Source: Candidatus Gottesmanbacteria bacterium (lineage in GTDB: Bacteria; Patescibacteriota; Microgenomatia; UBA10105; UBA927). From it: 64,000 bases of DNA. The stretch spans positions 13,420-77,419 of the forward strand of contig JACRMP010000015.1 in NCBI GenBank assembly GCA_016214885.1. The letters are read 5' to 3'. The translations under genes were made by a program, and so were the position numbers. The notes below the pieces were generated by a model. That model had not been told where the DNA came from, searched no databases, and saw nothing but the letters and a program-made list of their open reading frames with translations. Positions 23,602 to 59,832 of this stretch are shown here, piece after piece (the first letter of the stretch is position 1; each line of letters starts with the position of its first letter).

Positions 23602-24351
23602 ATGAAAGGTGTCATACTTGCCGGAGGATTAGCCACGAGACTGCGTCCGCTTACTGCGGTAACCAATAAGCATTTACTGCCGGTATATAACAAGCCGATG
23701 ATTTATTATCCCCTGGAGATGATGAAGCGGATAGGGATGAAAGAAGTGCTTCTTATAACCAGCGGCGGTCATGTGGGTGATTTTGCCAACCTTTTGCTTT
23801 CGGGAGAAGAATTCGGGCTCCGGTTGTATTATGCCATTCAACAGAACCCGACGGGGGGAATTGCCGATGGCCTCAAGCTCGCTGAGGAGTTTGCGCATAA
23901 CGAACCTATCATGGTTATTTTAGGGGACAATATATTTAACTTTGATCTTACTGCTTCAATAAAGCGGTTTAATGACACCATAGAAAAGGATAAAAAAGGC
24001 GCAATGGTGTTTGGTGTGCATCGGGAAAAACTCGCCCAGCAGTATGGGGTTATCGAAATGGATAACGAGGGTAAGGTGATAAGCATCGAGGAAAAGCCGG
24101 AACACCCCAAGTCTGATATCGCCCAAACGGGCATTTATGTTTATGACAACAGGGTGTTTGATTTCACCAGAACGCTTAAACCCTCTGACCGCGGACAACT
24201 CGAAGTGACCGATCTTAACAATATGTATCTGGCTGAACACTCACTCATGTGCGAGCTTATAGATTGGTGGGTAGACGCAGGTACATCTCATGATGAATTA
24301 CTGCAGGCAAATGTGCAGGTTGCTGAATTTGTAAAACAAGGAAAACTCTAA
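23602..24351 (+). CDS. rmlA: Glucose-1-phosphate thymidylyltransferase (RmlA/SpsI-like)
   Basis: MKGVILAGGLATRLRPLT...KHLLPVY.KPMIYYP, EEKP, PS.RGQLEVTD; SD AAAGGAG. Confidence 0.9.
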   Translation: MKGVILAGGLATRLRPLTAVTNKHLLPVYNKPMIYYPLEMMKRIGMKEVLLITSGGHVGDFANLLLSGEEFGLRLYYAIQQNPTGGIADGLKLAEEFAHNEPIMVILGDNIFNFDLTASIKRFNDTIEKDKKGAMVFGVHREKLAQQYGVIEMDNEGKVISIEEKPEHPKSDIAQTGIYVYDNRVFDFTRTLKPSDRGQLEVTDLNNMYLAEHSLMCELIDWWVDAGTSHDELLQANVQVAEFVKQGKL

Positions 24352-25367
24352 TGCGATTACTCGTAACCGGGGGAGCCGGATTCATAGGGGCAAACTTCAT
24401 CCTTTATTGGCTGAAGCATCATCCTGACGATGAGATAGTAAACTTCGATAAATTGACCTACGCCGGGAATTTGGAAAATTTGTCCAGTGTTGAAAAAAAT
24501 CCCCGCTACCGGTTTGTACAGGGGGATATTTGTGTATCAAAGGATGTTGTTGCCGCAATGGATGGCATCGATACGGTTGTTCATTTTGCCGCGGAAAGCC
24601 ACGTGGACCGTTCCATTCTTGAGGCGGCACCGTTTATCACCACAAATGTCACTGGCACTCAAGTGCTATTGGATGCTTCCCTCAAAGCAAAGGTAAAACG
24701 TTTCCATCATGTGTCAACAGATGAAGTGTTTGGCGCGCTGCCGCTTAATACGCCTGATAAGTTTAATGAGGCTACGGCATATGACCCCAGGAGTCCGTAT
24801 TCAGCTAGTAAAGCAGGATCGGACCATTTGGTGCGGGCATACTTCCACACGTTCGGACTCCCAGTCACTATAACCAATTGCTCCAATAATTACGGCCCAT
24901 TCCAGTTTCCGGAAAAACTTATTCCGCTTGCTGTCACAAATCTTCTGGAAGGCAGGAAAGTGCCGGTTTATGGGGATGGCAAATACGTGCGTGACTGGCT
25001 ATATGTCGATGACCATTGCAGGGCAATAGATGCAGTGCTCACCCGCGGACGCGTGGGGGAAACATATTGTGTGGGGGGGCTAACCGAAGATGTAGACAAC
25101 CTCACCATCATCAAAAATATTTTAACGATTATGGGTAAGGATGAGTCACAAATTGAATATGTCACCGATCGGCCGGGCCATGACCGCAGGTATGCAGTGG
25201 ACTGGACAAAAATTAATAAGGAGTTGGGATGGAAGCCGGAAAATGATTTCCAAACATGGCTCAATCTTACGGTTGCCTGGTATCGGGATCATGAGGATTG
25301 GTGGAAACGGGTAAAGAGCGGCGCGTATAAAGAATATTACGCAAAACAATACAAAAGCGCCTTATGA
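24351..25367 (+). CDS. rmlB: dTDP-glucose 4,6-dehydratase
   Basis: TGGAGFIG, DKLTYAGN, AAESHVDRS, STDEV, YSASK, RPGHDRRY. Confidence 0.96.
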   Translation: MRLLVTGGAGFIGANFILYWLKHHPDDEIVNFDKLTYAGNLENLSSVEKNPRYRFVQGDICVSKDVVAAMDGIDTVVHFAAESHVDRSILEAAPFITTNVTGTQVLLDASLKAKVKRFHHVSTDEVFGALPLNTPDKFNEATAYDPRSPYSASKAGSDHLVRAYFHTFGLPVTITNCSNNYGPFQFPEKLIPLAVTNLLEGRKVPVYGDGKYVRDWLYVDDHCRAIDAVLTRGRVGETYCVGGLTEDVDNLTIIKNILTIMGKDESQIEYVTDRPGHDRRYAVDWTKINKELGWKPENDFQTWLNLTVAWYRDHEDWWKRVKSGAYKEYYAKQYKSAL

Positions 25368-25609
25368 CCGGGTAGTGAAACTTCAGATGATTCTGTTCTT
25401 TTCATCCCGTACATAGGCGTTACATGAATAGTGAGGTGCGTGTAAATAGAATAGTGTCATGGGTTGTTAAGGAAAAGAGCAGAATCAGGTAAATTTATGC
25501 AAAATGCCGTATCACGACTGGAATATAGATTGATTATGGAAGCTTCTGAATCGCTGTCGAAGCGAATGTTACTTCGCGCGGCGTTTTGCCTGAAGTTCTA
25601 CTACCCGGT
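25367..25609 (+). ncRNA. Unknown ~243-nt three-helix structured element, copy A
   Basis: P1 25367-25386/25590-25609, P2 25388-25403/25472-25487, P3 25499-25509/25579-25589; second copy at 57954-58197. RNA versus DNA function is not established. Confidence 0.65.
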
Positions 25610-26308
25610 ATGAAACTTCTGGGAACCGGCTTATCAGGGTTGGTTGGGTCGCGTATTGTGGCGCTTCTGTCACAGCATACATTCACCAATTTCAGCCTGG
25701 AAAACGGCGTTGATATAACCGACAGTGCTTCGATTACCCCCCGTATTACCGGTGACACTGATTCCCCTTGGGTATTGCACCTTGCGGCCTACACCAATGT
25801 CCAGCAGGCAGAGGCAGATGCGTTGTTGGGTGAGAATAGTACGGCGTGGAAGGTAAACGTCGCCGCTACCCAAACGCTCGTTGATGCATGCCGCATCACG
25901 GGCAAGCATTTGCTGTATATCGATACCGATTATGCATTTGACGGGGCTAAAGACGTATATTCTGAAGAGGACACACCGCATCCGCTGGGCTGGTACGCCA
26001 AGACTAAATCCGAAGGGGCAATCGCAGCAGCCATAGACGCACTCATGTCCCGCCAAGCCAGCGGTATCTATCATGTGGTGGGGAGTGAAGCCCTTTCTCC
26101 TTATATAGCTGCAGGTATTGTGGCAAAAACATACGGACTCGATGAAGCGCTAGTGAAGCCCACCACCTTTGCTTCTTATTTTGCAGGCAAAGCTCCAATT
26201 CCCCAAAAAGCCGTATTAACAAACGGAAAAATCCGTGCATTGGGGGTTAGCATGCGTGGGTTTGCTGACGGGGTTTCTGAGATGAAACGTCAGGAAGAGA
26301 ATTCCTGA
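25610..26308 (+). CDS. rmlD: dTDP-4-dehydrorhamnose reductase (RmlD-like) with apparent in-frame internal deletion
   Basis: GTGLSGLVG, HLAAYTNV, DTDYAFDG, YAKTK; only 232 aa, jumping from YxxxK directly to the IAAAI helix. Confidence 0.75.
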   Translation: MKLLGTGLSGLVGSRIVALLSQHTFTNFSLENGVDITDSASITPRITGDTDSPWVLHLAAYTNVQQAEADALLGENSTAWKVNVAATQTLVDACRITGKHLLYIDTDYAFDGAKDVYSEEDTPHPLGWYAKTKSEGAIAAAIDALMSRQASGIYHVVGSEALSPYIAAGIVAKTYGLDEALVKPTTFASYFAGKAPIPQKAVLTNGKIRALGVSMRGFADGVSEMKRQEENS

Positions 26309-53971: not shown

Positions 53972-55602
53972 TTGTCCGTATCGATTATCGTAAAATGCGG
54001 TGTAGCATCGGGTAGTTGTATTTCAGCAACAACTTTTGGCTGGAGTTCACGCGGCACTTCATCGGATTTGGCAATAAGCAGAGTATTGGGGACGGCAAGA
54101 TCCTTTTGCCAGTCTATGGCTCTGAATGAAAATCTTCCGAAGCCTGATACATCGGAGAATCCGTCTCGCGATATCGGGTAACGGGTAGCCTGTTTTTGAT
54201 AGCTCCCCGGGTTGTATCCGCTGTAAAACATGAGATAGATATACGGGGATGTTTCGGGGTGTGTCATGATGACATTTTTATTTTTATTACTGTCAGAAAA
54301 TAAGACGGGGGTGAGTTTTTTGTATGCGTAGCCCCAGTGGGTAGCTTCGTTTTTGGGGAAGTGGACAAAATATCTGTCAAGATAATATCCCATGGAGCCC
54401 ATGTAGCCTGCTATCAGAACGAGTATCGCAATTTTTTTTCCGTGGGCAGAAGTATATTCCATAAAGAGATGAAATCCGGCACCGGCGGCAATGGCAAACG
54501 ACGGTACGACGGCAAGCATGCGGTTGGAATGGGGCGCATCTTTGGTGATAGCGGCGGCAACTGCACCTGTTGCAATCCACCATAAAATGAATTTTGATTC
54601 CTTTTTCCGGAGCTGAGATATAAGCCATGAAATACCCGCGATGAGAAGCGCTGCTTCTATAGGATGGAGATTGCCATAGCCTTGGATATTATGTGCTCTG
54701 TTGCCGCCTCCCTTGATAAACAAAAATTCTGATCCGTATGACTTGAGGTAGTTTTGGGTAACGGTGATGATAGCGTACGTTACCCTATTGTGCATAAGGC
54801 GGGTAGCTATTGAATTTGGATTGTCGTGCAGAAGACGCGGTAACTCAATTTCTTTGTGAATAACCGTTGGGTCTCCGAATATGGATATGCCGCTTATTTT
54901 GGTGTGATCAGCCGAAAACGTAACGGCAAGTATAGTGAGCGTGAGCGTTCCTCCTGCAGCTAGCGCCACCCACCAGCGGGGAACGCGGATAATATCTTTC
55001 CAGTAGATGATAACAATACCCAGTAGGAGGAGGGTAGTGGATATATGGGTGCCGTGATACGTCCAGTAGGTGAGGGCAAAAAGAATTGCAGCCAACGTGA
55101 GGTACAGCACTGATTTATTGCGGAGCGCAGTAAGAAACAGAAGGGAGCCTGTTATGCAAAAAAATACCGCTGTCACCGCTTCAGATTCCACCCGCGAAAT
55201 ATGGATATGCCACGGCATGAGTGCTAAAGATAAGGCCGCCACTAATGCTATTGAAGATGAGGAGAATAGCATTCTCGCCAGGAAAAATAAGAGAGCGACG
55301 GAGGCAGAGCCTGCAAGCGCCGACGGAAGACGGACAGCAAGCTCCGAAAGTCCAAATATCTTCACAAACGGTATGGTCATGTAAATATATAACGGCAATT
55401 TCCAGTCTCCGAATGACTCAAATGATAGAGGAAACGTTCTCCCGTATTCATCTTTACCCGTGGTCATCAGGGAGTATGCAGTTACACCGATGCTTGCTTC
55501 ATCGCGATTGACACCGGGCGGGGTGTTACGTAATCCGTAAAGCCTGAGTATGGCTGCTATTATGATGATGGAAATTAACGAGTATCTGACGAACGGTTTC
55601 AT
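53968..55602 (-). CDS. GT-C glycosyltransferase (PMT/ArnT-like)
   Basis: PPGVNRDEASIG..AYSL..TGKDEYG, FGDWKLP, PWHIHISR. Confidence 0.87.
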   Translation of the reverse strand: MKPFVRYSLISIIIIAAILRLYGLRNTPPGVNRDEASIGVTAYSLMTTGKDEYGRTFPLSFESFGDWKLPLYIYMTIPFVKIFGLSELAVRLPSALAGSASVALLFFLARMLFSSSSIALVAALSLALMPWHIHISRVESEAVTAVFFCITGSLLFLTALRNKSVLYLTLAAILFALTYWTYHGTHISTTLLLLGIVIIYWKDIIRVPRWWVALAAGGTLTLTILAVTFSADHTKISGISIFGDPTVIHKEIELPRLLHDNPNSIATRLMHNRVTYAIITVTQNYLKSYGSEFLFIKGGGNRAHNIQGYGNLHPIEAALLIAGISWLISQLRKKESKFILWWIATGAVAAAITKDAPHSNRMLAVVPSFAIAAGAGFHLFMEYTSAHGKKIAILVLIAGYMGSMGYYLDRYFVHFPKNEATHWGYAYKKLTPVLFSDSNKNKNVIMTHPETSPYIYLMFYSGYNPGSYQKQATRYPISRDGFSDVSGFGRFSFRAIDWQKDLAVPNTLLIAKSDEVPRELQPKVVAEIQLPDATPHFTIIDTDK

Positions 55603-57953
55603 AGTCTCTTTTTTTGTATGATGAGGAGCAATATAATTGTCGCACCTAGGCTAGCGGCACTCAAGAGTATACCCAGGGTGACACTGAAGGGTGCATAGAT
55701 CATGATAACTTCATGTTTGCCTGAAGGAACGTTAATTCCCCGCATGGTCCAATTTACCCGCGCTATAGCGGTGGGTTTGCCGTCTACGGTTGCAATCCAT
55801 CCGGGGTAAAACGTATCCGTCACGACCAGTGTTCCTGACACAGAACTCTCTGTTTTGACCATAACCCTCTCAGGTTCGTAAGAGGTGATGGCAGCGCTTC
55901 CTGTGGCAGGGAAGCCTTTGACTATACTTACCCCCTCAGGGAAAAGGGCGGTGGTAATGGGATTAAATCCATCAGAAAAAAATATGTCGGTGAAATCCCT
56001 GCTATTTTCATATGTTTTTGATTCTCCTGCAACGAATGCGCGGGGAAGAGCCTCGGTATTTTCATATATTGCCCAGTCGTCGAAGCTGTGGATTTTTTTG
56101 ATGACGTGGGGAGGATACGTCTGTTCACTGCTGGCGTTTTCCATCCGATCCAGAATATACCTGACACTGAGGGCGCTTAACACTTTCCGCTTCGTTTCAT
56201 CGGAGAGACCGCCGTCCCCGAACCGGGATGAGATGGCTGCGTCGGAGCGCGATGCGTTGTCAAATATTTCCATGAGCTGGCCGTTTCTGTATGCATACAA
56301 AAACTCACCGTACCACTTGGGATACAGGGGATCATATCCTTCCGGTGAAAAAAGACGGTATTGCGACGCAAAGTTTGCGCTTATATTTGCCGTTCCGTAG
56401 CCCCAGTACCGCCCTAATTGGGCAGAAGACAGGTATGCTATCGTTTTGTGTTCGGGGAACACGAGCTCTTTTGACACAAACGGATTAAACCGGTTGAAAA
56501 ACACAAAAAGATCCATGACATGGATGACTAATAGTACGGTTATGGCTAACGTGCGCATTTTCGGGAGCGCAATAGCAATCCAGAATAAGCCCAATGTGGC
56601 TGCAGACAAAGCCATTCCGTATATGAGAGCCCGTACTGCCACGCCTGCATGGAGCGACAGCTCCGGGGTAAACGGAAGTTTGGTGCCGATAAACAATACG
56701 GCGAAGATTCCCGCCACCTCGATAGTTCTTCTGAATAGTTTTTTAAGCGAGTGCTTATCACGCATCCAGAAGTCTAAGCCTAAACCGCACATCATGGAAA
56801 GTGAGAATGCCAGTAAAAATGACATAAGCGTAGGGCTGCTGGAGGTGAAAAGAGGAATCGGCACCCGATAGAGAATCTGTGTAATCGGATTAGTGGTAAG
56901 GAGTAGTGCGGTGGTCAGCACTGCCAGGATAAACCATTTGGATATCGTATCTTTCCGGCGCAGCGCTGACAGTGAAAAGAATAGCGGAATAAGTCCTATG
57001 GTGGTCACCTTCCCCACAAAGGTATCGCTTGGCCAATAGGTGCGGGTTGCCGGGTTGCCGAATAGATTGGGGAAGGGAAGCGCAAACAACTGACCCGGAT
57101 GGATGAGTATTTTTGCAAATAGATTACCCGGATCATGCGGGCTCCTGGCAGCATGACTGACAAGTTCCATACCGGGGACAACCTGAATGCCCGCAATTCC
57201 GATTCCTAGTGCGGTAAATCCGAGTAAATACGGCCACATAGTTCGGTGCATCCTGAACAATCCGTAGGTGACAGAAAATGCACAGGCATATGCATAGACC
57301 TGGGGGTGTCCAGCAAGAAGCGACATGACGTGGGACAATGTGTATATGCCGAGCCATAGCGGGCTGATTCGTTCCCGTAAGTGTTCTATGGCAAGCAGTA
57401 TGAGTGGGAGCCATAGAACGACGTGGCCTATGGTGTTGTATTCAAGCCAGACTGCCATAAATCCGGAGAATCCGTATGAAGTCGCGGCCAACCAGCTTCC
57501 TAGTGGTCTCATGCCGATTTTTCTGCTAAAGAGATAGGTAAAAAGAACCGCAAGCAGTGGTTGGGTGATCACCAGGATAGTCCATGCGTCAATCTGCGCC
57601 ATGAACAGGTAGAGAATGCCCAGGGGATATACGGCGGCACTTTGGAAGTTTGCAAGGAGCGGGGAGCCGGAAAAATTATACGGATTCCAGAGGGGTAGCC
57701 GTCCTTTCTGAAGCGAATTTATTACTGCCGTTTTCCACGGGTACATTTGACGGATGGTGTCGGGGTATTGCGCCTTGTTGGGTATCCCGCCCGCACCGTA
57801 CCCCAAGTAGGAAGTTGACCGCCACGGCTGGAAGTCGCTTACCAGAATATCCCCGGGGAACGGGACTTTACCACGGAATACAGTCTGATAAAAAAACAGG
57901 GAAATAACGGCAGAAAGTATAACAAGAACCAACATCCATTCGTTTCGTTTCAT
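55599..57953 (-). CDS. YfhO-family GT-C membrane protein
   Basis: PDTIRQMYPW, PLWNPYNFSG, AGHPQ, EGYDP, LPRAF, FYPGW.A.VDG; ATG at 57953 preferred. Confidence 0.87.
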   Translation of the reverse strand: MKRNEWMLVLVILSAVISLFFYQTVFRGKVPFPGDILVSDFQPWRSTSYLGYGAGGIPNKAQYPDTIRQMYPWKTAVINSLQKGRLPLWNPYNFSGSPLLANFQSAAVYPLGILYLFMAQIDAWTILVITQPLLAVLFTYLFSRKIGMRPLGSWLAATSYGFSGFMAVWLEYNTIGHVVLWLPLILLAIEHLRERISPLWLGIYTLSHVMSLLAGHPQVYAYACAFSVTYGLFRMHRTMWPYLLGFTALGIGIAGIQVVPGMELVSHAARSPHDPGNLFAKILIHPGQLFALPFPNLFGNPATRTYWPSDTFVGKVTTIGLIPLFFSLSALRRKDTISKWFILAVLTTALLLTTNPITQILYRVPIPLFTSSSPTLMSFLLAFSLSMMCGLGLDFWMRDKHSLKKLFRRTIEVAGIFAVLFIGTKLPFTPELSLHAGVAVRALIYGMALSAATLGLFWIAIALPKMRTLAITVLLVIHVMDLFVFFNRFNPFVSKELVFPEHKTIAYLSSAQLGRYWGYGTANISANFASQYRLFSPEGYDPLYPKWYGEFLYAYRNGQLMEIFDNASRSDAAISSRFGDGGLSDETKRKVLSALSVRYILDRMENASSEQTYPPHVIKKIHSFDDWAIYENTEALPRAFVAGESKTYENSRDFTDIFFSDGFNPITTALFPEGVSIVKGFPATGSAAITSYEPERVMVKTESSVSGTLVVTDTFYPGWIATVDGKPTAIARVNWTMRGINVPSGKHEVIMIYAPFSVTLGILLSAASLGATIILLLIIQKKRL

Positions 57954-58197
57954 ACCGGGTAGTAGAGCTTCTGGCAAAACGCCTCTCTTAGAGAATATAC
58001 TCTTAATCGGCTTTTGAGAAGTCTCCTTCCTTAATGGTTATTGCGTTAGATTGTCCGGCGTTTTGCATAAATAAATTAAATTATGTTCTTTTCCATTACA
58101 ATCCTATTTCTTTATCTTGTTTATTTTCTTTATGCGCAGACTGCAGTACTGTGACCGGACAGAAAAGAACATAATTTCCGAAGTTTCACTACCCGGC
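57954..58197 (-). ncRNA. Unknown ~244-nt three-helix structured element, copy B
   Basis: P1 58197-58178/57973-57954, P2 58177-58162/58093-58078, P3 58066-58057/57983-57974; homologous to copy A in the stems only. Confidence 0.65.
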
Positions 58198-58200
58198 ATA

Positions 58201-59832
58201 TTACGATTTTTTGCGTATTCCCAATGCATATAACGCCGCGGCGGCTATAAGAGAGAATAATGTTACCGTTTCTGCGATACGCCGCACCGGCGACTCCTCC
58301 CATACTACACGGACATGATGGGTTCCCCCGGGCAAACGGAAAGTGATAAGCCCCCTCCAATTTTGATCCTGGAATTCTACCGGAATTTTTTTGCCCCCCG
58401 CATACACCCGCCAGCCGGGGAAATACTGGGTGCGGTCAACTACCTGGACGTCATTTGCAGCTGTTACCGTGAATGTATGAAGGGTTCCTTTTTTAACGGG
58501 ATTACTGATGGTACCTGTCCCTCCCACAATTTCAAAACGGTTTTCGGGATACGATCCTGCGGGGCCTGCTGACCAGATAACATCCGTTTCCCCGAAGTAT
58601 GTGGTGTTCAGAGGATAATCCCAAAAATACCGTTCATCGATTTTATCCATCCCCAGCGGCGGACGGAAATACACCGCAGTCGAGGCAACGGTCATCGTTA
58701 TCAATATGACAATAAGATACAAAGGCGTCTTTTTGTTGATGTATACTACTCCACCAAGAATAGCCAGGGAAAATGCAGTAATATTAAGAAGCCTCCACGG
58801 AAACTGGAACATCCGCAGGATGGGGATATTAGTCCAGAGAAATTGGGAAACGGGCTGCATGACAAAAAGAGCTAATCCTGTTAAAAAGAGCGCAAACCAT
58901 ACCGTCTTTTTTTCGGTAGCACTGTTTATTTTTTTCCGGAGGATAAGAGTAATCGCATAAAAAAGCGACACTACCTGGGTGAGCCCCAACGAAACGGCTA
59001 TGCCGCCTGTTTGGAGACTTGCGGCATTAGTGAGGTTGGGGATAAAAAAATTAACAAACGGTGCAAAGTGTGATTTATACATGTCCTTCATAAATAAATC
59101 GCCGTAGGTATACCGTCGTTCAATAATTGCGGGTATCCAATAAAAGGCGGACAAAGTGAGTCCGAGGGTAAGACCCATAAACCCCTCGATACGTTTTTGG
59201 TGGTTAGGGCTGAACAGAAGCACAAACAGGGTAATGACCCCGAAAAATACGAGGCTTATGGCATTGTGGGAAGTGATAAGAAGCAGGGTGGAAACTCCGG
59301 TAAACAGTACGTTAAGGTAGCTGTTATTTTGTGTAAATCCACGGGTGACGGCATACAGCACCAATGGAAGGAATGCCAGCGCATAGCCCTCAGCCATGTC
59401 GCCGCGTACTAAAAGGTCGATCAGATGAAATGGGGCAAACTGGTAGAGTATGGTCGCAAGCAGTGCTTTCCCTTCATGTTTGAAAAACCGCAGACTGAAA
59501 AGGTACATGAAAATCCCTGAAAGCAAAAAGCTTACCGTAAGGGAAATTTTGAATGCAAAAACCAATCCGCCACCCAGGGCGACAACCGCAGAGGCGACTA
59601 CATACGGAACATGGTAAATAAAGTTGAATAGCGGCATACCATAGCCGTAATTGAGTTCGCCTGCCCACCGCGGGAGAATCTGTCCTTCGGACAACGCTTT
59701 ATAGTAGGCGGCAATACGGGCGAAATGAACAGGGCTGTCGTGTGTATGGGGGGCCAGATCAGTGATAAAAAGGGATATAAACGGGAGAAGCGAAATTGCA
59801 ATAACAAGGATATAGTGCTTAAATGATTTCAT
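58201..59832 (-). CDS. GT-C membrane protein (PTPS-related family)
   Basis: THD...H..R, GQILPRW...N.GYG.P.FNF.Y, RGDMAE, QFPWR, YFPGW. Confidence 0.83.
   Translation of the reverse strand: MKSFKHYILVIAISLLPFISLFITDLAPHTHDSPVHFARIAAYYKALSEGQILPRWAGELNYGYGMPLFNFIYHVPYVVASAVVALGGGLVFAFKISLTVSFLLSGIFMYLFSLRFFKHEGKALLATILYQFAPFHLIDLLVRGDMAEGYALAFLPLVLYAVTRGFTQNNSYLNVLFTGVSTLLLITSHNAISLVFFGVITLFVLLFSPNHQKRIEGFMGLTLGLTLSAFYWIPAIIERRYTYGDLFMKDMYKSHFAPFVNFFIPNLTNAASLQTGGIAVSLGLTQVVSLFYAITLILRKKINSATEKKTVWFALFLTGLALFVMQPVSQFLWTNIPILRMFQFPWRLLNITAFSLAILGGVVYINKKTPLYLIVILITMTVASTAVYFRPPLGMDKIDERYFWDYPLNTTYFGETDVIWSAGPAGSYPENRFEIVGGTGTISNPVKKGTLHTFTVTAANDVQVVDRTQYFPGWRVYAGGKKIPVEFQDQNWRGLITFRLPGGTHHVRVVWEESPVRRIAETVTLFSLIAAAALYALGIRKKS

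Follow-up and report, generated by a model that had tools for sequence, protein, structure and literature searches.

Bacterial MITEs such as Correia, ERIC and RUP are short, gene-less, multi-copy elements with inverted ends and a target duplication; they derive from an internally deleted coding parent and give rise to a co-transcribed hairpin, and the parents known so far encode DDE transposases. Transposition chemistry in general falls into DDE, HUH, tyrosine and serine classes, and guide RNAs of the bridge-RNA kind carry loops complementary to target or donor DNA. REPINs and TIRtrons form dispersed families with variable spacers in which a small nuclease-type gene is bracketed by inverted repeats, and their enzymes, RAYT and TIRYT, are HUH tyrosine transposases, according to the available sections of the source (PMC3733652). 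Slx1 cuts one strand at branched DNA, and the available part of a survey of its relatives presents the stand-alone prokaryotic members as repair proteins with mostly vertical descent (PMC1564403). The closest described system is Ssn/NTS, in which a single-domain GIY-YIG gene of ~90 aa is flanked by repeats that are also scattered genome-wide; in the portion of their text available, Chenal et al. (2025; PMC11893778) state that the architecture of NTS-ssnA-NTS is the same as that of an IS and report that folded ssDNA is cut.

Here, we analyze two folded, gene-less repeats, copies A and B, in a window of 64,000 nucleotides from a Candidatus Gottesmanbacteria genome (G000; 1.12 Mb, 98% complete). 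We propose that they are, with good confidence, MITE-like non-autonomous copies of a mobile element of ~310 bp, resident in ultra-small groundwater bacteria, whose only gene encodes a Slx1/UPF0213-like GIY-YIG nuclease of ~89 aa. A literature search covering mostly open-access papers, as main texts without supplements, returned no description of the family, and the parent is apparently an unpublished, very small GIY-YIG mobile element.

Although the small single-domain GIY-YIG protein and the general layout resemble those of Ssn, each NTS repeat forms its own hairpin of 20–50 nt, whereas the two ends of the present elements pair across the whole gene, and the sections of the Ssn report available describe no target duplications, empty sites, start-codon targeting or in-gene hairpins (PMC11893778). 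The SRM pattern of the Ssn system is absent from all 96 elements searched with 30-nt flanks, with five matches in the whole genome. The nuclease encoded by the 310-bp copy on contig C9 of G000 is 38% identical over 64 aa (34.7 bits) to L403, an NTS-adjacent Ssn-like stand-in that is not SsnA itself, and none of 68 nuclease proteins matches this same stand-in at E<1e-10, the best value being 2e-10. In contrast to REPINs and TIRtrons, the G000 open reading frame is of the GIY-YIG type, the genome gives no match to Y1_Tnp (PF01797), and target duplications are the rule. The elements differ from classical DDE insertion sequences in that the sole open reading frame is GIY-YIG and that PF01609, the only DDE family searched, is absent from G000, and from Slx1/UPF0213 proteins in that the nuclease is here the cargo of a patchily distributed, repeat-bounded element. 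A and B share with MITEs their small size, lack of genes, multiple copies, co-transcribed hairpin, terminal inverted repeats, target duplications with dispersed copies and empty sites, and origin by internal deletion from a coding element with the same ends; unlike the MITEs above, their parent is a ~310-bp element with only a GIY-YIG nuclease gene, and insertion is oriented on start codons.

Copy A (25368..25608, plus strand) is located between a gene for an rmlB-like dehydratase (24351..25367, plus strand; Pfam GDP_Man_Dehyd/Epimerase) and rmlD (25610..26308, plus strand; Pfam RmlD_sub_bind), and copy B (57955..58196, minus strand), of the same subtype, between genes for a PTPS_related membrane protein (58201..59832, minus strand) and a YfhO-like membrane glycosyltransferase of 784 aa counted from the ATG (55599..57953, minus strand). 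Each copy occupies the start codon of the gene 3' to it. The left TATGA duplication of A (25363..25367, plus strand) includes the rmlB stop codon, and the right one (25609..25613, plus strand) restores the rmlD start codon (ATG 25610). Correspondingly, the left TATG duplication of B (58197..58200, minus strand) lies immediately 3' of the stop codon of the upstream gene, and the right one (57951..57954, minus strand) restores the start codon of the YfhO-like gene. A preliminary description had given the repeats extents of 243 and 244 nt. The architecture it proposed stands, but the element proper runs from CC to GG and measures 241 bp in A and 242 bp in B; the outer A/G and T count as part of the target duplication at its flanks.

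The three helices are found where they had been placed. In A (all plus strand), P1 pairs 25368..25386 with 25590..25608, P2 pairs 25388..25403 with 25472..25487, and P3 pairs 25499..25510 with 25578..25589; in B (all minus strand), the corresponding arms are 58196-58180 and 57971-57955 (P1), 58177-58162 and 58093-58078 (P2), and 58066-58057 and 57983-57974 (P3). The P2 and P3 loops measure 68 and 69 nt in A, and 68 and 73 nt in B. Folded as RNA, A reaches −91.8 kcal/mol (z −6.27) and B −68.8 kcal/mol (z −5.39), and in neither case was any of 200 shuffled sequences equally stable. Two stem positions of A, 25505 and 25510 in the 5' arm of P3, are T/C polymorphisms opposite G; at 25505, which forms a G-U pair in A, contigs of two of the four runs carry the C that gives a Watson-Crick pair.

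Both copies lie in sense orientation within a surface-glycan locus of ~39 kb (window positions 23476-62699) that contains many GT2, GT4 and PMT_2/GT87 genes and three YfhO-like genes, and this context had raised the possibility of a host-derived cis antiterminator or a guide-bearing scaffold RNA of glycan operons. We regard such a role as extremely improbable. No Rfam family, EAR and other structured RNAs included, matches at gathering score across the window, and at copy A the only Rfam matches are two to snoRNAs at chance level, far under the cut-off. Promoter and terminator scans gave only weak consensus matches. The feature is also not confined to two copies, as had been thought: G000 holds 12 copies with common imperfect inverted ends, comprising nine of 136–139 bp, A, B and one of 310 bp, after two more end pairings (one cross-pairing and one chance match) had been dropped. 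Host genes in G000 include dnaG, an EPSP-synthase/MurA-family gene, and genes for a PBP, PilN, a class II tRNA synthetase and mreB. In genome G019, the A/B subtype itself is found at atpD, rplF, a D-Ala ligase-family gene and an aldehyde dehydrogenase gene, and in genome G042 the host gene is rnc. With hosts such as these, the glycan context of A and B is incidental, and relatives run the same operons without the element. As for guide function, the loops give no non-self match in the genome below E 0.05 (best 0.054) and none in phages, in contrast to what guide RNAs of the bridge-RNA kind would require, and loop 3 is a remnant of coding sequence. The loops of A and B are decayed filler, not guides.

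The parent form is represented by the 310-bp copy (G000:C9:36479-36788), which is inserted at the start codon of mreB and encodes a GIY-YIG nuclease (Pfam E 1.7e-16) as its sole gene. The solved structures nearest to this protein are those of Slx1 and UPF0213 proteins (PDB 1zg2, 1ywl and 4xlg), and residues Y4, Y6, Y17, G19, R27, H31 and E63 are invariant among 29 aligned homologues. NCBIfam returned only a sub-cut-off match to a group I intron endonuclease, the ESM Atlas only generic GIY-YIG clusters, and plasmid and phage collections no match. Over their whole lengths, A and B can be aligned with 18 full-length elements, and each helix finds its counterpart in the alignment. P1 corresponds to the terminal inverted repeats, and its 3' arm in A contains the former stop codon of the nuclease. 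The P2 arms are relics of the Met-Phe-Phe start region, whose ATG is mutated in A, and of the Lys-Glu-His-Asn codons, so that in the intact gene P2 pairs the start codon with the gene's own Glu-His-Asn codons; the P3 arms are relics of the Ala-Lys-Arg codons and of the last codons, Arg-Phe-Ala. In A and B, ~60 nt between P2 and P3 have been lost, and the 11-nt linker is what remains. A copy in G042 shows the same short linker and spacer deletion while both loops can still be read as nuclease codons, and represents either an ancestor or a parallel deletion.

The loops had been described as largely unrelated but conserved in length. Their lengths are indeed conserved, and loop 2 is close to the spacing in the gene itself (69 versus 72 nt). 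The P3 loops, however, are recognizably related to each other and to the nuclease gene (z 4.0 in A, 7.7 in B and 5.7–10.2 in the other five copies), while loop 2 of all seven decayed copies resembles the gene no better than shuffled sequence does (z −0.2 to 1.4).

Related elements occur in other genomes of the surrounding taxa. Of 41 related genomes, 18 match the end motif, with anything between a single hit and over 20 pairs each, against 0–1 hits per genome for the reversed motif, and a covariance model built from seven three-helix copies, a search of the kind proposed at the outset, gives matches in 30 of 87 genomes in the order. In its exact form, the A/B subtype is rare and was found in two of 401 genomes of the class, with two copies in G000 and five in G019; likewise, the exact three-helix pattern occurs at five loci among genome contigs, all in one record, and at none in metagenome contigs. 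Viral contigs contain nine matches to one end but no paired element. The nine short copies in G000 are only 60–90% alike and thus show no sign of a recent burst; either the insertions are old, or the loops change fast.

That A and B have moved is shown, on the genomic record, by their ends, their duplications and the empty state of the orthologous sites. None of the 29 other rmlD loci compared, taken from the best-scoring among 75 genomes that gave a match, carries the element at the rmlB-rmlD junction, and judged by eye the rmlB stop codon overlaps the rmlD start codon in 28 of them, in 27 as ATGA; in G000, a copy of this junction, TATGA, stands at either end of A. The YfhO-like locus is empty in 19 of 19 others (best of 79 genomes), with the same upstream gene adjoining in 18, and TATG stands on either side of B. 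Among the candidate roles first listed, that of a structured non-autonomous mobile element is supported by the inverted ends, the duplicated targets, the orthologous sites that are empty and the intact nuclease-encoding parent. A is present in contigs of three of four runs, from three studies, run X16 having no coverage of it, and among the joints listed for the four runs there is none that corresponds to an empty site. Across the family, in counts that include kin and orthologous insertions, a duplication of at least 3 bp flanks 71 of 88 members (96 pairings minus eight nested or duplicate rows), compared with 2.8% of random junctions. It is exactly 4 bp at 54 members, ranges overall from 3 to 5 bp, and is absent at that threshold from 17; its sequence is TATG in 33 and ATGA in 14 of the 96 pairings.

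Insertion is oriented with respect to host start codons, and the ATG is rebuilt in the process. Among 43 long elements that could be oriented by their own gene or by P3, 37 have an ATG within the first four flanking bases at the right end and none has the reverse arrangement, and 35 open an ORF of at least 60 codons; in G000, 11 of the 12 copies open an ORF of at least 98 aa. A crude ORF model that combines sequence preference with loss of intragenic hits predicts start-codon landing in about one third of cases, and the p-values for this comparison are inflated by kinship. In 28 of 68 cases, a same-strand upstream gene stops at most 8 nt from the element. At rpsH-rplF, atpG-atpD and rmlB-rmlD, a folded insert of 200–240 nt is placed directly 5' of the AUG, and no Shine-Dalgarno-like 4-mer is found in the last 16 nt of 55 elements. 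Two simple ways of reading across the insert were considered and found wanting. Bridging of a Shine-Dalgarno sequence is unsupported, with such 4-mers preceding 9 of 55 left flanks versus 114 of 748 genome-wide, and in-frame protein splicing is at odds with element plus duplication being a multiple of three in only 13 of 58 cases.

The stems of these elements are conserved to a degree that their loops are not. Between the seven gene-less copies, arms are 82–100% identical and loops 45–58%. In an alignment of 25 sequences, 97.7% of the cells are paired, and two-sided changes are found at 11 of 35 pairs (P1 3/9, P2 8/17, P3 0/9), exceeding all 500 shuffles and all slid registers. P2 beats synonymous-codon shuffles (p<=0.05) in 30 of 55 repeat-bounded genes and in two of seven repeat-less genes, the 62 of 80 loci that were analysable. 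The best covarying pair (Fisher 2e-9) joins the third base of Phe3 to the opening base of the Lys/Glu codon, which lies two codons ahead of His, and is C-G in 14, T-A in 26 and otherwise composed in 4 of 44 sequences. Since the C-G state requires eight changes on the tree but supported branches hold only four independent contrasts (3.8:0, p 0.125), covariation at this pair is suggestive rather than proven.

One reading of the gene-less copies is that their stems are neutral relics, complementary through replication template switching alone. Template switching does yield multi-base compensatory changes, as stated in the part of the source available (bioRxiv 2021.04.15.439925), and in some copies the inverted repeat has the opposite polarity with respect to the gene, which is what an inversion of the spacer would produce. 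Arm-to-arm copying does not, however, predict the excess of arm over loop identity between copies, and in intact genes the changes in P2 accompany amino-acid changes (Lys/Glu). We consider this neutral reading improbable; template-switch correction would instead be a likely helper in stem upkeep.

Covariation had also been put forward as a sign of selection on single-stranded structure. The covariation is real but compatible with RNA as well as with single-stranded DNA. G-U outnumbers A-C by 2:0 in decayed copies and 6:4 in intact ones, counts too few to tell the two kinds of selection apart, and the two T/C polymorphisms in the stem of A do not distinguish them either. If RNA were the selected form, the element might be removed from the transcript at the foot of P1, by splicing or cleavage, leaving the original stop-start junction or a leaderless downstream mRNA. 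Such removal would agree with the strict co-orientation (37:0), the lack of Shine-Dalgarno-like 4-mers at the element's end, the tolerance of inserts at rpsH-rplF, atpG-atpD and dnaG, and the fact that the non-Watson-Crick pairs in the P2 and P3 stems of A are all G-U. It is countered by the absence of catalytic RNA features and of an Rfam match, by the G-U and A-C counts, and by a replacement of hairpins at the base of P2 that points to action at the DNA level; we give removal as RNA little credence. Such replacements are seen at L249, at L223, at L219 and in an orthologous trio (L213/L256/L263). Here P2 has given way to a sibling element, 138, 136 or 32–33 nt long, with only the basal one or two pairs left per side and no duplication. 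The occurrence of at least three kinds of event at this position suggests that folded DNA stems are cut there.

We infer that the nuclease drives mobility and that A and B were moved in trans by the enzyme of the parent. The tight bracketing of nuclease genes argues for this: inverted repeats ~275–370 bp apart enclose 71 of 80 nuclease loci (best 80 of 87), compared with 18 of 244 control region pairs, and the sequence of the ends differs among nuclease subgroups. The invariant catalytic residues point the same way, as does the absence from G000 of a larger element with these ends within pairings of up to 3.5 kb. The opposing view, which assigns the nuclease the part of a passenger or homing-type helper and has another host or transposase activity move the hairpin elements, draws on gene-less copies with the same ends that occur down to 33 nt and on the enzyme itself, as we know of no strand-joining activity for a lone nuclease of ~90 aa. 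The mobility search, which covered the three families Y1 (PF01797), DDE_Tnp_1 (PF01609) and reverse transcriptase, gave no match in the 98%-complete genome. Weighing these points, we find a separate mover doubtful, though worth keeping in mind.

With the nuclease as mobiliser, we somewhat favor a route in which the element folds as single-stranded or cruciform DNA and the nuclease, acting in trans, would cut at the base of the folded stem, with a staggered cut at (T)ATG(A), after which host repair would join the ends and fill in the duplication. The putative source of nuclease in G000 is the intact-looking copy at mreB. This copy has lost the usual stop codon and its reading frame runs eight codons further, so the C9 nuclease may be inactive. 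In the transcript, P2 would rather probably hide the AUG of the nuclease, which would remain silent except when a ribosome arrives by reading through from the host gene; a ribosome starting from the duplicated left ATG could also melt P2. For the host gene, we envisage, with confidence evenly balanced for and against, that the insert is looped out of the mRNA by P1, which would hold the upstream stop codon or leader beside the rebuilt AUG, so that essential, translationally coupled genes tolerate the insert and the stems are selected while the loops drift. This model is in keeping with inserts being tolerated in essential coupled operons and with stems persisting in dead copies.

There is about an even chance that the parent represents a categorically new class of very small prokaryotic transposon, A and B themselves being of the MITE kind. 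In this class, a Slx1-like nuclease of ~89 aa would be the mobiliser and would read folded ssDNA junctions as ends and targets, insertion would be oriented on start codons, a hairpin between the gene's own start codon and catalytic-motif codons would gate translation, and the insert would be invisible to translational coupling. If the nuclease is the mobiliser, its transposition chemistry lies outside the DDE, HUH, tyrosine and serine classes, in an element about one third the size of a typical IS. If true, the proposal would also assign a function to the many Slx1-like genes that stand alone in Patescibacteria. It would open the suggested IS-like origin of Ssn nucleases to direct testing and would provide an insertion tool of very small size that targets start codons. 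Furthermore, the folded inserts directly before the AUG of essential coupled genes pose a question of translation initiation, and the strong covariation, which here comes from a mobile element and not from a host regulatory RNA, is a caution for RNA-motif searches.

Several smaller observations concern the host locus and the wider family. Among the rml genes scanned in the glycan locus, rmlC is absent. The rmlD gene of the window lacks an in-frame segment of 174 nt (58 codons) that is found in orthologues, at site 26021; a contig of run X2 has ~174 extra bases there and contigs of X5 and X7 also break at this point, and the gap is either a strain deletion or an assembly error. At L083:743-919, a 33-nt element consisting of the two ends only is nested within a short copy with a 3-base duplication, and 33 nt may be the minimal mobile unit. 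In L075 and L211, the asymmetric bulge of the terminal repeat is flipped relative to the nuclease gene when compared with other full-length elements, a pattern that inversion of the interior would produce. L008, a member of 121 bp between TATG duplications, is found in a record labelled Bdellovibrionales, which reflects either a host range beyond Patescibacteria or a binning error.

G000 also contains other small GIY-YIG genes. Two, at G000:C3:31872-32078 (minus strand) and G000:C32:18045-18254 (plus strand), lie directly 5' of tRNA-like sequences identified by eye; upstream, the 5' end of the tRNA recurs as a short copy, and inverted ends are absent. These two constitute a different type of cassette. 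Another, at G000:C29:52173-52397 (plus strand), has no flanking inverted repeats and is presumably a housekeeping gene of the UPF0213/YhbQ type.

With regard to target sites, two genomes carry different family members at the start codon of dnaG (G000:C3:112437-112575 and L219:1370-1611), which suggests that one site has been used repeatedly. Finally, members of 68–69 nt in L020, L031 and L067 are inserted in Shine-Dalgarno-like GGAG/GAGG sequences just 5' of a start codon and duplicate them.
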